In this document: positions 5,794 through 23,136 of the stretch, one piece after another
How positions within the stretch are numbered: the first letter of the stretch is position 1
Layout of the letters: each line of letters starts with the position of its first letter
Virus record (IMG/VR): IMGVR_UViG_2744054964_000002
Location: 1 to 43,041 of that record
From: a virus
Taxonomy: Duplodnaviria > Heunggongvirae > Uroviricota > Caudoviricetes
Length of the DNA stretch: 43,041 nucleotides
Direction: 5' to 3' (one strand)
Notes under the pieces: generated by a model
The model's input: the letters and a program-made list of their open reading frames with translations, nothing else
Told to the model about the DNA's origin: nothing
Databases searched by the model: none
Translations under genes and position numbers: made by a program

Positions 5794-5863
5794 GGTTTCT
5801 CCTGAAATTTGGATGTGCAGAACTCGCCCGCGTAATGCCAGGCCGATCGGTTGAATAGGGTGG

Positions 5864-6061
5864 TTACTGCTGCGCGATGGATTTCGCCGGGAACTCGCCG
5901 TTGCGGATGATGCTTTCTACCGGCCAGCACTCAGCTGACACTTTCTGCTCTGTAGCTGCCAGGCTGCATTCCTGCTGGCTGTCGTAAACGCCGAGAATGA
6001 CATCCTGATAATCACCGTTGGTCATTGCCACGGTCAGGACGAGTGCGAATAAAGTTTCCAT
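5864..6061 (-). CDS. Small hypothetical protein (65 aa from the internal ATG)
   Basis: Track ORF 5864-6115 begins with GTG; an internal ATG at 6061 (METLFALVLTVAMTNGDY...) overlaps the stop of the upstream small ORF (TGATG), suggesting coupled translation. Hydrophobic N-terminus. Confidence 0.35.
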   Translation of the reverse strand: METLFALVLTVAMTNGDYQDVILGVYDSQQECSLAATEQKVSAECWPVESIIRNGEFPAKSIAQQ

Positions 6062-18403: not shown

Positions 18404-19303
18404 ATGCCAAATTGGATAGACGTGTTGGGCGAGATGGGTACTATTGCTCAACGTACACCAGCGGATGAGGTTCGCCACAAGTACTTACGAGAGTTGTCGA
18501 AGCATACAGGCCGAAACGTAATTTCATATTACTCAGGCTTCCTCCAGAAGGGGGGGCCTGGGTTGCAGCATTTAATACAAATGTCAGATGACGATAAAAA
18601 TGGTCTTATGTCAGCCATTAACGGCTTAGACACGTCATTAGGGCTGGATATCTTGCTTCATACCCCAGGGGGAGATATTGCAGCATTGGAATCTATTGGT
18701 CATTATCTTCGTTCAAAATTTGGGACCAATATCCGGGCAATTGTTCCTATGATCTCAATGAGTTGTGGGACCATGTTGGCTTGCTGTGCCGAACAGATTG
18801 TATTGGGCAAACAGTCAAATTTGGGGCCAATTGATCCGCAGCTTGGTGGTTTATCATCTCATGCGATCATAGAAGAGTATGAGCGAGCTAAGAAAGAGAT
18901 TTCTGAAAATGCTGCAGCGATCCAATGGTGGCAATTTACTCTTCAAAAGCTAAACCCGACTCTCATTGGTGAATGTGAAAAGGCTATTGTTTGGGCTAAT
19001 GAAATAGTACAAAAATGGCTGTGTACTGGTATGTTTGCAGGTCATGCTAACGCTCAAGATAAGGCTAAGCGAATTTGTGATGAGCTAAACAATCATCATA
19101 CAACCTATGCGCATGCTAGACATATTCATCTGGATAAAGCGCAAAGCATTGGTTTGAACATTATGGAGCTGGAGAGCGACCAAACTCTGCAGGATCTTGT
19201 GCTGACTATACATCATTGCTACATGCATTCATTTGGTACGAGTCCTGCTGCGAAAATTATTGAAAATCATAATGGCAGCACGATGATGTGGAATATTCGC
19301 TAA
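18404..19303 (+). CDS. ClpP/crotonase-fold serine peptidase-like protein (S49/SDH-like); second cassette gene
   Basis: 299-aa ORF; LLHTPGGDI resembles the xxSPGG oxyanion-hole motif of ClpP/SppA-fold peptidases; candidate nucleophile in MISMSCGTMLA; AT-rich by eye. Family call is motif-based only. Confidence 0.55.
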   Translation: MPNWIDVLGEMGTIAQRTPADEVRHKYLRELSKHTGRNVISYYSGFLQKGGPGLQHLIQMSDDDKNGLMSAINGLDTSLGLDILLHTPGGDIAALESIGHYLRSKFGTNIRAIVPMISMSCGTMLACCAEQIVLGKQSNLGPIDPQLGGLSSHAIIEEYERAKKEISENAAAIQWWQFTLQKLNPTLIGECEKAIVWANEIVQKWLCTGMFAGHANAQDKAKRICDELNNHHTTYAHARHIHLDKAQSIGLNIMELESDQTLQDLVLTIHHCYMHSFGTSPAAKIIENHNGSTMMWNIR

Positions 19304-19397: not shown

Positions 19398-19793
19398 ATG
19401 TCCGATCCTGTTTCTGGCACTACGGTCGCGGCTGGTGGCCTGATGGGAGCCAGCGTATTTGGTCTTGCAACCGGTATTGATTATGGCGTGGTATTTGGCG
19501 CATTCGCTGGTGCAGTATTTTATGTAGCGACAGCGGCAAATATCACACGAGTACGATTGATTGCTTACTTCATGACGTCATTCATTGTTGGCGTTCTTGC
19601 CGCTGGACTGGTGGGTTCAAAGCTGTCACAGGCTACCGGGTATAGTGACAGACCATTAGACGCACTTGGTGCTGTTGTAGTGGCGGCGATGACAATCAAA
19701 GTGCTCACATTTTTCAACAGTCAGGATTTGGGAAGCCTGTTCAGTATTCTTTCGCGATTCCGTGGAGGAGGGGCCAGCAATGGTAACAAGTGA
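19398..19793 (+). CDS. Putative holin (multi-pass membrane protein)
   Basis: 131-aa ORF after AGAGGGGG RBS; three hydrophobic segments rich in Gly/Ala; immediately upstream of the endolysin. Confidence 0.65.
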   Translation: MSDPVSGTTVAAGGLMGASVFGLATGIDYGVVFGAFAGAVFYVATAANITRVRLIAYFMTSFIVGVLAAGLVGSKLSQATGYSDRPLDALGAVVVAAMTIKVLTFFNSQDLGSLFSILSRFRGGGASNGNK

Positions 19794-20061
19794 TCCGTCA
19801 GCGATGGTGAATGCAGGTATTTGTGCGGTCATCGTCCTTGTCCTGATGTTCTACCAGCGTGAAGGGGCAAGACATCGCCCCGCTATATCATTGCTGGCGT
19901 ACTTCGTTGTGCTGGTTTATGCCAGCGTTCCATTCCGATATCTGTTCGGCCTCTACCAGGAGTCACACTGGATGGTGGTCATCGTAAACCTTCTTATTTG
20001 CGCTGCCGTGTTATGGGCTCGTGGGAATGTGGCGCGTCTCGTTGATACGCTGAGGCATTAA
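19780..20061 (+). CDS. Second lysis-cassette membrane protein (holin/antiholin-like)
   Basis: 93-aa ORF from ATG 19780 (GGAGGAGGGG RBS), overlapping the holin stop; at least two hydrophobic helices; stop overlaps the endolysin ATG (TAATG). Confidence 0.5.
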   Translation: MVTSDPSAMVNAGICAVIVLVLMFYQREGARHRPAISLLAYFVVLVYASVPFRYLFGLYQESHWMVVIVNLLICAAVLWARGNVARLVDTLRH

Positions 20062-20678
20062 TGAACCAATCACAATTTCAACAGGCGGCTGGTGTAAGCG
20101 CCGGGTTAGCTACGCGCTGGTTTCCGCACATTGACGCGGCAATGAAAGAGTTCGGCATTGTTAAGCCTGAAGACCAGGCAATGTTTATTGCTCAGTCAGG
20201 ACATGAATCAGCGGGATTCTCTGCGCTGGTGGAGAGCTTCAACTACACCCCAGCCGCTCTGCTGACCACATTTGGACGCCGCATTACGAACTATCAGGCA
20301 TATATGCTTGGGCGTGACAAAGAAAAAGGGCACGTAGCCAATCAGCCAGCCATTGCAAATCTGGTGTACAGCAATCGCCTCGGTAACAAAGCATCAGGCG
20401 ATGGGTGGAAATATCGTGGCCGTGGGCTGATTCAGATTACCGGTCTTGATAATTACCGCCGCTGCGGAACGGGATTAAAACTGGATTTAGTCAGTAATCC
20501 TGAGTTGCTGGAAAAGGATATCAACGCGGCACGTTCAGCTGCATGGTTCTACGCCACCAGCGGATGCCTGAGCTATTCCGGCGATCTGGTTCGCATCACC
20601 CAGATCATCAATGGTGGACAGAACGGCATTAACGACCGTCGTGCACGCTACGCCAAAGCAAAAGCCGCACTGGTATGA
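20061..20678 (+). CDS. Endolysin, glycoside hydrolase family 19 (chitinase-like lysozyme)
   Basis: 205-aa ORF; FIAQSGHESAGF and YRGRGLIQITGLDNY are GH19 catalytic-region motifs; high overall similarity by eye to known Salmonella-phage GH19 endolysins. Confidence 0.9.
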   Translation: MNQSQFQQAAGVSAGLATRWFPHIDAAMKEFGIVKPEDQAMFIAQSGHESAGFSALVESFNYTPAALLTTFGRRITNYQAYMLGRDKEKGHVANQPAIANLVYSNRLGNKASGDGWKYRGRGLIQITGLDNYRRCGTGLKLDLVSNPELLEKDINAARSAAWFYATSGCLSYSGDLVRITQIINGGQNGINDRRARYAKAKAALV

Positions 20679-20685
20679 GGTCGCT

Positions 20686-20961
20686 ATGGGACTTGAAATG
20701 ATTATCGGCCTGGCTGTTGCTGTGCTGGCTGCAATTGCAGGTGCTTTTGGTCTGGGTAAATCGCGCGGTACTAACATCGCTGAGACAAAAGCGGACCAGC
20801 AACGCACTGAAGAACGTGCAACAGCTACTGAAGCTGTTGCTGAACGCCGGGTAGAAACAACGAAAGAGGCCAGCAATGTACAGCAGAGTGTTAACCATAT
20901 GCTTGGCGACGATGTTGATCGTGAGCTGCGCAACAACTGGACCCGCCCCGGTAGTCGTTGA
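20686..20961 (+). CDS. i-spanin (Rz-like)
   Basis: 91-aa ORF from ATG 20686; N-terminal TM helix (IIGLAVAVLAAIAGAFGL) then charged coiled-coil region; follows the endolysin. Confidence 0.65.
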   Translation: MGLEMIIGLAVAVLAAIAGAFGLGKSRGTNIAETKADQQRTEERATATEAVAERRVETTKEASNVQQSVNHMLGDDVDRELRNNWTRPGSR

Positions 20962-21127
20962 TACCGCCTGTGATTGGGTAAAGCCCATCTATCTTACTGA
21001 CCACGATATTGCCGTTATGGATAAGCAGACGAAGCGCGACATCCTAGTGCATAACAAAGCATGGAAGGTGAACTGTAATCCCAAAAAGGTAAAGACGAGC
21101 ACTCTAAAATTTGTGGACAAGCCATGA
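20876..21127 (+). CDS. o-spanin (Rz1-like lipoprotein), overlapping the i-spanin in another frame
   Basis: 83-aa ORF starting inside the Rz-like gene; signal/lipobox-like TMLIVSC followed by a Pro-containing mature region. Confidence 0.6.
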   Translation: MYSRVLTICLATMLIVSCATTGPAPVVVDTACDWVKPIYLTDHDIAVMDKQTKRDILVHNKAWKVNCNPKKVKTSTLKFVDKP

Positions 21128-21189: not shown

Positions 21190-21441
21190 ATGGCAAAAAC
21201 ATATTTCCCCATCGAAGACTCTGTAGAGTTAGTGACAGCATCTAAACCACACCCAAGTAACACGCATTACAAAGTTTCTCGTGGAACTGAAATCTGGGAT
21301 GGTGAAAATGTTGAGGTAATCAAAGTTCAGATGGTTTACAACGGCGAAGTGGCCGGAAGAAGAAGCCCTTCATATCCCGTTGGGACTGATGATTATCAAC
21401 GTGTCCATTTAGCTATAGAAAAAATCATCAGGTCAAGATAA
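21190..21441 (+). CDS. Hypothetical protein (83 aa)
   Basis: ORF preceded by two 15-bp direct repeats (21147-21182) and followed by a terminator. Confidence 0.5.
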   Translation: MAKTYFPIEDSVELVTASKPHPSNTHYKVSRGTEIWDGENVEVIKVQMVYNGEVAGRRSPSYPVGTDDYQRVHLAIEKIIRSR

Positions 21442-21448
21442 AAGCAAA

Positions 21449-21471
21449 AGGTCGCTTAGGCGGCCTTTTTT
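21449..21471 (+). terminator. Rho-independent terminator
   Basis: AGGTCGC-TTAG-GCGGCCT stem (one G-U pair) followed by TTTTTT. Confidence 0.5.
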
Positions 21472-21679
21472 CATCGATAATACATTCACTGGGTTATATC
21501 CAATCCCGTGGTTGAGAGGCATGCTGTATTGCTACTCGACTAACTGCATTACAGAAAGCATTCACTGAGTGCCTGCGATAATGCAAATTGACGGACTCGT
21601 CAGAAATCCTTTACAAAACATGATGTTGAATTAAATTGTTGCGTGGGTTAGCTTGAGGTTAGTTCACACAGGAGGTCAT

Positions 21680-21922
21680 ATGTCACAATCAGCGCTTGCT
21701 ACTGAATTAGAACTCACTGACGATGAGTTGGATTCCATACCTCTATCACCTGAAGACCTTGAGGAGAATACAGGGCATTCAGGCGATATGGTATATGAGT
21801 ACTATTTCTATGTTCCCGATACTACCCCTGAAGATATTCTTAGCAAGAAAGGATGGGAAATAGGTGAGTGTGTTTACTTATCTATTAATGTTTTTGATGA
21901 CCCGGATTCGGAGCAAGAATAG
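21680..21922 (+). CDS. Small highly acidic protein (80 aa)
   Basis: ATG at 21680 after AGGAGG RBS; about 30 percent Asp/Glu (ELELTDDELDSIPLSPEDLEE...DDPDSEQE); own terminator downstream. Confidence 0.5.
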   Translation: MSQSALATELELTDDELDSIPLSPEDLEENTGHSGDMVYEYYFYVPDTTPEDILSKKGWEIGECVYLSINVFDDPDSEQE

Positions 21923-21938
21923 AACGATAAGCATAATG

Positions 21939-21961
21939 CACCGCCTCCGGGCGGTTTTTTT
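21939..21961 (+). terminator. Rho-independent terminator
   Basis: CCGCC-TCCG-GGCGG stem followed by TTTTTTT. Confidence 0.65.
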
Positions 21962-21983
21962 ATGTCAGTACACTGGAGCGTTT

Positions 21984-22622
21984 ATGGCAACACTCAAAGA
22001 CCTTTCTCAGCAATTAAAGAAGGTACAAAAGCAGGTGCCATATGCTACAGCACTAGCTATGACAAAAGTTGTTCGTCAAATAGAAACGGCACAGAAAACA
22101 GCGTTCGAACGACATCTGGAGAGCCCGACACCGTTTACCGTTAAATCAGTTGGTTCGGTGGCGGCAAGGAAGAACAACCTGACTGCAAAGGTTTTTGTCC
22201 GCGATACCGCGGCTGGTTATCTGGAACCATTCGAGTTAGGTGGAGAGCATAAGCTCAATAGCCAAGCGCTATTGAACCCCAAGAACGTCAAGCTAAACAA
22301 ATACGGCAACATGCCGCGTAATAAGCTCTCACAGCTTAAAGCAAAGGAAAATGTATTCGTAGGTGAGGTTGATGGCGTTAACGCTGTCTGGCAGCGTAAG
22401 AAGCCGATGAAAGCTAAGAAGCGACGGGCCAAACGTTCCGCTAACGGGACGCGAAGACCGAAACGCAAACAGCGTTCTCCAAAGCTTTTGATCCGGTTTG
22501 GTGATGCGCTACCTGTGACTCCAGTGCTGGGGTATATGGATAGGGCCCGTACCATGGCGAACGCACTGCTACCGTCTGCTTTAAATCAGGCGATAGCAGA
22601 AGCCATCAGGACGGCAAAATAA
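21984..22622 (+). CDS. Hypothetical protein with basic Lys/Arg-rich segment (212 aa)
   Basis: Internal ATG at 21984 (the upstream part of the track ORF contains the terminator); KKPMKAKKRRAKRSANGTRRPKRKQR basic tract; no confident family. Confidence 0.5.
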   Translation: MATLKDLSQQLKKVQKQVPYATALAMTKVVRQIETAQKTAFERHLESPTPFTVKSVGSVAARKNNLTAKVFVRDTAAGYLEPFELGGEHKLNSQALLNPKNVKLNKYGNMPRNKLSQLKAKENVFVGEVDGVNAVWQRKKPMKAKKRRAKRSANGTRRPKRKQRSPKLLIRFGDALPVTPVLGYMDRARTMANALLPSALNQAIAEAIRTAK

Positions 22623-22632
22623 AAGCAGTAAC

Positions 22633-23136
22633 TTATAAGTTAATTTCGCAAGCTTTTATGAAGCTGTTTACTGCAGTTGTCGATCCAGAAACATTGGCTG
22701 ACATGGAATGCTGGTTTCCGCCATCCTTTGTTTGCACACCAACTAACACTTTGGATTTCGCCCCCTGAAGCTGCTTAAGCACTGTTTTTAGTTGGTCCGC
22801 GTCATCCGATTGAATCTGGAGGCTCTGAACATTACGTCTTGAAAGGGTAGCATCGAGCTTCACTGCGGTATTCCCGTCGACCTTCATTATCAGGTCCATT
22901 GGTACCTCTGATAGTGATTCGGTGCTTTTATCCATTTCAACGTATGCCGCCGATAGCTTTTCTTTAGTGCAGTCAAACACAATGGCGCCATTGTCGGATG
23001 AAACCTCGCCAAGCATCATTGCTTTCTTACCACCAGAGAAAAGGTCATCTTCAGTATTAGTTACCCACTGGGCATGAGCAATTGGTGATGCCAGCACTGC
23101 GGCTACGAAAGTTATTTTGATTATATTGTTACCCAT
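22633..23136 (-). CDS. Secreted hypothetical protein (167 aa), opposite-strand moron between lysis genes and cos
   Basis: ATG at 23134-23136 after AAGGAG RBS; N-terminal signal peptide MGNNIIKITFVAAVLASPIAHA; only minus-strand gene in the late region, in the position bor occupies in lambda. Confidence 0.55.
   Translation of the reverse strand: MGNNIIKITFVAAVLASPIAHAQWVTNTEDDLFSGGKKAMMLGEVSSDNGAIVFDCTKEKLSAAYVEMDKSTESLSEVPMDLIMKVDGNTAVKLDATLSRRNVQSLQIQSDDADQLKTVLKQLQGAKSKVLVGVQTKDGGNQHSMSANVSGSTTAVNSFIKACEINL

Follow-up and report, generated by a model that had tools for sequence, protein, structure and literature searches.

A conserved, strongly acidic accessory gene in the lysis-to-terminase slot of an Escherichia coli prophage, with a possible role as an inhibitor of HEPN-type effectors

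The DNA analysed here (hereafter the window) is a stretch of 43,041 nucleotides covering positions 1 to 43,041 of IMG/VR record IMGVR_UViG_2744054964_000002. It is a prophage of E. coli; six complete genomes of this species match it over 1.6 kb at 100% identity, and most of the locus under study is present in 7 of 5426 E. coli genomes. Lambdoid early genes are joined in it to a lambda-type terminase and head module and to a contractile tail resembling those of Mu and SfV. Its lysis cassette (19398-21127) encodes holins, a GH19 endolysin and Rz/Rz1, and four small genes lie between this cassette and the small terminase gene (23427). The second of the four encodes an 80-aa acidic protein, the subject of this study.

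The first of the four is a cassette in its own right, consisting of an 83-aa ORF (21190-21441, + strand) and its own terminator, a hairpin with a T-run (21446-21472); in E. coli KFu022, a lipoprotein gene takes its place. On the other side of the acidic gene, a 212-aa gene (21984-22622, + strand) matches PHROG 1924, 'minor tail protein' (E 3e-60), an odd assignment for a gene lying between lysis and terminase and far from the tail genes. It converges with a 167-aa gene (22633-23136, - strand) that belongs to PHROG 19473, a family without an assigned function. In related E. coli prophages, the 212-aa and 167-aa genes remain together with the terminase block, and the cargo upstream of them varies. 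None of these three neighbours of the acidic gene had a match in Pfam, NCBIfam or PADLOC, such family assignments as there are coming from PHROGs; the 83-aa ORF has no family in any of the four libraries. Farther upstream, between the Q antiterminator and holin genes, lies a gene annotated as an 'SDH family Clp-fold serine proteinase' (about 18404-19303 in the window; 17305-18204 in L001), an identity taken from the RefSeq annotation of the identical prophage. Since the Nissle 1917 prophage has a similar gene in the corresponding position, this site is another accessory slot.

The following features lie at and around the acidic gene:

Positions 21475-21494, + strand: degenerate partial copy (CGATAATACATTCACTGGGT) of the junction element described below, related to the full copy by direct repeats D5 and D7.
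Positions 21545-21585, + strand: full copy of that element, a 41-nt imperfect palindrome or hairpin, TGCATTACAGAAAGCATTCA C TGAGTGCCTGCGATAATGCA (inverted repeat I1; covariance-model score 58 bits, E 1.5e-14).
Positions 21588-21603, no strand assigned: 16-nt palindrome TTGACG-GACT-CGTCAG, conserved as TTGACG-N4-CGTCAA upstream of the gene.
Positions 21610-21637, + strand: alternative promoter-like site TTTACA-16-TAAATT, predicted by consensus scan.
Positions 21626-21654, + strand: predicted promoter-like site TTGAAT-17-TAGCTT, with hexamer positions conserved in alignment A5.
Positions 21670-21675, + strand: Shine-Dalgarno sequence AGGAGG, separated from the ATG by a 4-nt spacer and kept in L003, L007 and L008.
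Positions 21680-21922, + strand: coding sequence of the 80-aa acidic protein (ATG at 21680, TAG at 21920-21922), PHROG 31861 family.
Positions 21940-21962, + strand: intrinsic terminator, ACCGCCTCCGGGCGGT followed by a T run, forming the right boundary of the slot.

Our analysis agrees with the original prediction of an 80-aa ORF at 21680-21922 on the + strand. The protein contains 12 Glu and 10 Asp, together with two Lys, one His and no Arg, and has a net charge of -20 and a pI of about 4.05; it is thus strongly acidic, as had been claimed, though the quoted figure of about 30 percent Asp/Glu comes down to 22 residues, or 27.5%. The Tyr/Phe clusters that had been noted are also present, with YEYYFYV at residues 39-45 among a total of eight aromatic residues. 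The gene is relatively poor in GC (40.7%, versus 51.8% for the window). A strong ribosome-binding site had likewise been predicted, and the AGGAGG motif recurs with the same spacing in homologous loci.

The terminator that had been called the gene's own is a clean hairpin (ACCGCC-TCCG-GGCGGT at 21940-21955, a 6-bp GC-rich stem) followed by seven T residues, but it is not specific to this gene. Near-identical hairpins lie 3' of the acidic gene in L007, L008 and L010, and in E. coli OW1E2 (L024) the same hairpin follows a different cargo gene of 99 aa in the same slot. Because of this last occurrence, the terminator cannot be considered strictly the acidic gene's own; the hairpin behaves as a common right-hand boundary of the slot, used for varied cargo in various phages.

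The candidate promoter at 21626-21654 reads TTGACT-17-TATCTT in L007 and L008 and is weak in the window copy; as a prediction it amounts to a consensus match, and promoter-like sites in the region did not exceed the number expected from shuffled sequence. The 16-nt palindrome may be an operator; its arms are kept in the window, L003, L007 and L008 while its centre varies (GACT, GGCT, AAAT; alignment A5). Both the palindrome and the promoter-like site are retained in Ewingella and in two IMG/VR phages, despite saturation of synonymous sites in the ORF. A scan of the collection for TTGACG-N4-CGTCAAAA was uninformative, since matches occurred at about the level expected by chance for 14 specified bases.

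The exact 80-aa protein is found on 751 contigs, on every one of which it is labelled 'hypothetical', and word-seeded searches added only a handful of relatives (63-99% identical) from Escherichia, Kluyvera and Ewingella. An HMM scan covering all 1.84 billion representatives returned 60 matches at E <= 1e-3, including 22 at E <= 1e-10. We rejected five of these (P0048, P0054, P0055, P0064 and P0065), which are giant Big_2-repeat proteins and which we judged to be compositional or repeat artefacts, leaving about 55 credible representatives at 50% identity. Hosts of the family include Yersinia, Vibrio and Photobacterium in addition to the three genera above. The only library match of the 80-aa protein was a full-length one to PHROG 31861, a family without an assigned function (E 1.2e-25, residues 4-79 against positions 5-80 of an 83-position profile). 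Pfam contained no match for the protein at E <= 1, nor for 35 family members at E <= 10, and NCBIfam and PADLOC contained none for the protein. Searches of 50,697 GenBank phage records with tblastn, using the protein and its homologue P0009, and with megablast, using the locus, were also without a match; the family is not in those records, and its phage copies are known only from prophages and metagenomes.

The 80-aa ORF is a real gene under selection. Pairwise dN/dS among homologues at 63-79% identity was 0.06-0.24, with synonymous sites saturated. Across 35 divergent aligned members, net charge averaged -15 (range -6 to -21) and Asp or Glu exceeded a fraction of 0.8 at alignment columns 15, 16, 36, 47 and 73, which indicates that acidity is a selected trait of the family and not an accident of one sequence. 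The same alignment contains a conserved hydrophobic and aromatic core (L10, L17, YxYYFxVP, L54, W59 and F72). These results support the earlier description of a small, acidic phage accessory protein equipped with expression signals and extend its acidity to the family as a whole. They also bear on the possibility, raised with that description, of a DNA mimic like Ocr or ArdA, which would block type I restriction-modification, BREX or other DNA-binding defences: dense, conserved Asp/Glu, as found in DNA mimics generally, is present here in a small protein. Ocr (T7 gp0.3) and ArdA are likewise small, very acidic, carried by phages or plasmids and functional as single genes, and the acidic gene may similarly sit where expression on DNA entry is possible.

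Sequence comparison lends no further support to such kinship. The family profile had no match among PDB sequences at E <= 10 beyond chance, so the family is unrelated in sequence to any solved DNA mimic, as it is to any Pfam family. We found neither sequence nor profile similarity to Ocr or ArdA and no link to restriction-modification systems. ArdA is a three-domain dimer of about 165 aa; Pfam, NCBIfam and PDB searches gave no match to the ArdA family, and the protein studied here has a single domain of 80 aa.

Structure prediction, which had been suggested as a check on mimicry, did yield a fold, though not one resembling solved DNA mimics. AlphaFold2 was run once with 8 sequences and once with 29, and the two models agreed on a small alpha/beta fold with moderate confidence (mean pLDDT 76-77, pTM 0.57-0.58), in which helices at residues 3-9 and 14-19, strands at 28-30 and 40-44, a helix at 51-57 and a strand at 64-68 precede a disordered acidic tail. 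Comparison of this model with PDB and BFVD returned no structural neighbour, solved DNA mimics included, which suggests that the predicted fold is unrelated to any of them. The predicted domain is compact, in contrast to the elongated all-helical dimer of Ocr or the three-domain, DNA-shaped rod of ArdA. To our knowledge, however, DNA mimics share no common fold, and a novel fold is therefore compatible with mimicry: it weakens the proposal that the protein is an Ocr or ArdA, not the proposal that it may act by charge mimicry.

The genomic distribution of the family is that of an accessory gene on mobile elements. All traced members of the stand-alone and Zn-ribbon forms are on mobile elements, and in about 17 distinct temperate-phage contexts, involving at least three terminase types, the acidic gene lies between the lysis genes and the terminase. 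It is found directly between Rz and a different terS in an Ewingella prophage, between lysis genes plus pRha and a Terminase_2-type terS in L010, and between pRha and a Terminase_4/TerL module in a Yersinia-type HK97-like phage. A locus search seeded by the narrow alignment A9 identified 13 further IMG/VR phages with homologues at 42-55% identity. When neighbours within 3 kb were scanned against Pfam, the lysis side of these loci contained lysozyme (10 ORFs), Rz (6) and holins, and the packaging side contained terminases of the HK97, P22/T4 and lambda types, often with HNH genes in between. The lysis-to-terminase slot is constant while all of its surroundings change. Outside phages, members are carried by an 8-kb Rep3 plasmid, by Vibrio and Photobacterium MOBH plasmids (where the domain is fused to a double Zn ribbon, giving a protein of about 129 aa encoded among consecutive small genes) and by an integrase-flanked island, beside an AAA_15/AAA_21 ATPase. 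The presence of the family on phages as well as conjugative and small plasmids parallels ArdA and fits a DNA mimic in this respect. Mimicry of the Ocr kind is supported solely by this mobile-element distribution and by charge.

A constant position beside terS and terL might suggest an accessory to packaging or morphogenesis, such as a cofactor of the terminase or of cos/pac. This reading is close to refuted: the terminases adjoining the gene are of at least three unrelated types, close relatives with the same terminase do without the gene, and it occurs on plasmids and islands that contain no packaging genes.

Exchange of the gene as a unit is evident among close relatives. The position of the acidic gene is precisely where E. 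coli prophages with the 212-aa gene, the reverse-strand 167-aa gene and the terminase in common diverge from one another. The slot contains the unrelated 99-aa gene in OW1E2 and a cargo of cspG, ymcF, gnsA and YnfU in EC2641, and in KFu022 the acidic gene follows a different lysis cassette and the lipoprotein gene mentioned above. The block moving together with the gene begins at 21545 and includes the 41-nt imperfect palindrome, the 16-nt palindrome and the promoter-like site. The acidic gene is thus a self-contained accessory cassette, or 'moron', in a hypervariable lysis-to-terminase slot of a lambdoid, Mu-tailed prophage: it is an extra gene among conserved ones, it is followed by a terminator, its GC content is atypical and it is present or absent among relatives. 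Lambda bor and lom and the morons of HK97 and HK022 are similarly extra genes of a late operon with a promoter-like site and a terminator, atypical GC content and patchy presence among related phages. A difference is that a conserved 40-nt hairpin, absent from the classical description of morons, marks the boundaries of the cassette in several phages.

This anatomy could also suit a factor of lysogenic conversion, which would be expressed from the prophage and bind a protein of the host that itself binds nucleic acid (for example RNA polymerase or a nucleoid protein) or keep out superinfecting phages, rather than serve against host immunity. Low GC content, a promoter-like site and a terminator within a late operon recall lambda bor and lom, the conserved, operator-like palindrome upstream suggests regulated expression, and other cargo of the region includes lipoproteins, a theta subunit, an RNAP alpha-CTD-like protein and cold-shock genes. 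The 80-aa protein lacks a signal peptide or membrane segment, however, and the existence of plasmid copies and of the HEPN defence modules described below is better explained by conflict between genetic elements than by host physiology. We consider a host-modulating role doubtful. As regards timing, the acidic gene is in the late operon, and expression in the lysogen for the benefit of the host is equally possible. In lambda, packaging finishes with the right genome end, just upstream of cos, and injection begins with it. A gene near this first-injected end with a promoter could act on entry, weakening the objection that a 'late gene' would come too late for defence inhibition; a promoter-like site at the end that lambda-type phages inject first would likewise suit a DNA mimic.

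The left edge of the block that is common to other carriers of the acidic gene is the hairpin at 21545-21585, a copy of a 40-nt element with consensus GGCATTACAGCAGGCATTCACTGAGTGCCTGTGATAATGC. Its 17-mer core, CATTCACTGAGTGCCTG, is found exactly in at least 120 IMG/VR contigs, and among 5426 E. coli genomes, 141 have the element region, Nissle 1917 being one of them. The edges of the element are razor-sharp. It usually starts directly after a stop codon, and the RBS and ATG of small genes follow 16-90 nt past it; 87 such downstream ORFs form 49 clusters. Cargo beside the element includes HNH, DUF551, pol III theta, YnfU, BamE-like lipoproteins, DUF2560, pRha, P22 antirepressor-like proteins and an Acb2/Tad1-hairpin homologue. 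The covariance model placed the element upstream of the acidic gene in the window, L002-L005, L003 and L023, downstream of it in L007 and L008, and on both sides in L010 (copies at 5862-5903 in L003, 6373-6414 in L007, and 5862-5903 and 6700-6741 in L010); the element is absent from the majority of the distant phage loci that carry the gene. The partial copy at 21475-21494 lies just past the terminator of the upstream 83-aa cassette and is below the threshold of the covariance model. Farther afield, the element is found in phage phi80 (L268, 3500-3541), where it directly follows rha and is unannotated, and in mEp390, Klebsiella prophages and Pectobacterium ZF40.

The consensus of the element is predicted to fold at -22 kcal/mol (z -5.8), with the window copy weaker at -12.9 kcal/mol. 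Some variant arms restore perfect pairing, in three different ways, and the element in L010 contains two compensated inner-stem changes. Five pairs show double changes, a count that was reached by 50 of 500 shuffles; since the sequence itself is so conserved, covariation provides only modest support for the structure overall. Rfam contained no family for the intergenic elements of the locus, and the searchable literature contained no description of the 40-nt element (and nothing relevant on RiboL-PSP). PeSL of T4-type phages, REP sequences and integron attC sites are analogous in being short, conserved, imperfect palindromes. The element, which directly follows stop codons, lies between diverse small accessory genes and is multi-copy in some loci, differs from them in sequence, and we saw no dedicated recombinase or RAYT transposase for it. 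It may serve as a homologous-recombination linker for cassette exchange, as an mRNA-stabilizing or processing hairpin, or as a protein-binding site.

In L026 and seven similar IMG/VR loci, a 93-aa ORF matching the Pfam family Acb2_Tad1_hairpin (E 2e-18) is located immediately upstream of the element. The Acb2_Tad1 family includes anti-CBASS and anti-Thoeris sponges, and the region bounded by the element thus carries at least one type of known anti-defence gene. The tie between Acb2 and the acidic gene runs through the common junction element, not through direct adjacency.

Domain fusions provide the only clue that is specific to function. In P0020, P0028, P0040 and P0057 (4 of the approximately 55 credible representatives of the family), the acidic domain is N-terminal to a domain of about 190 aa that contains RHDIVHRNG, an Rx4H motif. 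This C-terminal domain weakly matched HEPN_RiboL-PSP (E 5e-5 to 7e-4), and its homologues (E down to 1e-33) are annotated as PF18735. In PF18735 homologues, the N-terminal slot is occupied by PF18870, PF18871 or HNH in place of the acidic domain. Despite a superficial likeness between the acidic domain and PF18870 (an aromatic strand and a P-x-x-EEL motif), hhalign did not support homology between the two (probability 0.09%, E 0.59). The gene for P0057 (L018, 2188-2973) lies between GmrSD_C, ATPase_2 and E2/ThiF/JAB genes, surroundings that, judged from these gene families, are those of a defence island. In other relatives, a double Zn ribbon or an HTH comes first and the acidic domain forms the C-terminal part. 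We also considered whether the Zn ribbon of the plasmid form is Lar-like and rejected this identity, as only generic zinc-ribbon matches were obtained. PADLOC recognized neither the stand-alone protein nor the fusions.

The HEPN fusion points to RNases as the relevant partners and not to DNA-binding enzymes. Fusion to a HEPN RNase and to DNA-binding modules would be odd for a DNA decoy, and a generic, non-Lar-like Zn ribbon also weighs against one. Our data shift the best guess toward an antitoxin-like inhibitor of HEPN-type effectors, and with nothing found that specifically ties the 80-aa protein to DNA mimicry or to restriction systems, we regard the mimic hypothesis as improbable.

Comparison with known inhibitors helps to frame the antitoxin-like alternative. 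T4 Dmd and the acidic neutralizing domains of type II antitoxins are direct inhibitors of RNase toxins, HEPN toxins among them. Like Dmd, the acidic protein is a small phage product whose gene lacks a toxin gene beside it; type II antitoxin domains are likewise acidic, and relatives of the protein studied here combine a DNA-binding domain with the acidic domain, or the acidic domain with HEPN. In contrast to these resemblances, there is no homology to Dmd or to the antitoxin families, and most members of the acidic family are solitary. No conserved neighbour or cognate toxin gene was found in any phage, plasmid or island context scanned, which suggests that the protein works alone or with a factor of the host or a rival; as neither HEPN nor other toxin genes consistently adjoin the stand-alone acidic genes, they are not part of a classical toxin-antitoxin pair. 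The HEPN-fused relatives are, by analogy, comparable to CapRel(SJ46), a fused toxin-antitoxin defence protein: both would unite in one polypeptide an effector and a small regulatory domain able to autoinhibit and to sense. They differ from CapRel(SJ46) in domain order and in the families involved, and autoinhibition by the acidic domain is purely our extrapolation from this architecture.

We propose, as a tentative reading to which we assign a probability of roughly 35%, that the acidic protein is an unfused inhibitor module serving counter-defence; HEPN RNases are the most specific lead to its target. Inhibition, the class of target and the direction of the effect, i.e., counter-defence, are what we infer from architecture and distribution. 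In this model, the protein would consist of one small alpha/beta domain, selected for its strongly negative surface, and would act stoichiometrically as a protein inhibitor, covering the basic face with which an immune or toxin effector of the nuclease type binds nucleic acid, much as an acidic antitoxin domain does. Candidate targets are RNases of the HEPN family. Placed N-terminally on RiboL-PSP-type HEPN proteins, the acidic domain could serve as a cis autoinhibitor or sensor, and behind a Zn ribbon or HTH its placement would resemble that of an antitoxin. Such effectors would then be neutralized in trans by the unfused copies that phages and plasmids carry. One reading, that of a protein-binding, neutralizing acidic module, could cover all of these architectures. 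The mobile-element distribution of the family and the Acb2/Tad1 homologue in the hypervariable region make a counter-defence role reasonable. In more general terms, the acidic protein probably inhibits a nuclease of the host or of a rival element.

A broader and more speculative picture, which we are inclined to doubt, is that the acidic domain represents an unnamed conflict-system module that gates RiboL-PSP-type HEPN RNases of defence islands in cis and has been captured by phages and plasmids as a decoy or antitoxin to disarm them. Dozens of accessory genes, Acb2-like ones included, would be shuffled as cassettes in enterobacterial temperate phages, with the 40-nt element as the recombination or processing junction of an 'accessory-gene array'.

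The acidic gene is a genuine, conserved and uncharacterized accessory gene. If it does encode a counter-defence inhibitor, a widespread and readily testable family of 80-aa proteins with a novel fold would join the catalogue of anti-defence proteins, and its HEPN-fused relatives would offer a hypothesis for how HEPN defence RNases are kept off and switched on. The lysis-to-terminase slot is a rich hunting ground for accessory genes, for which the 40-nt junction hairpin provides a sequence handle, and this hairpin may explain how genes are exchanged between otherwise unrelated temperate phages.
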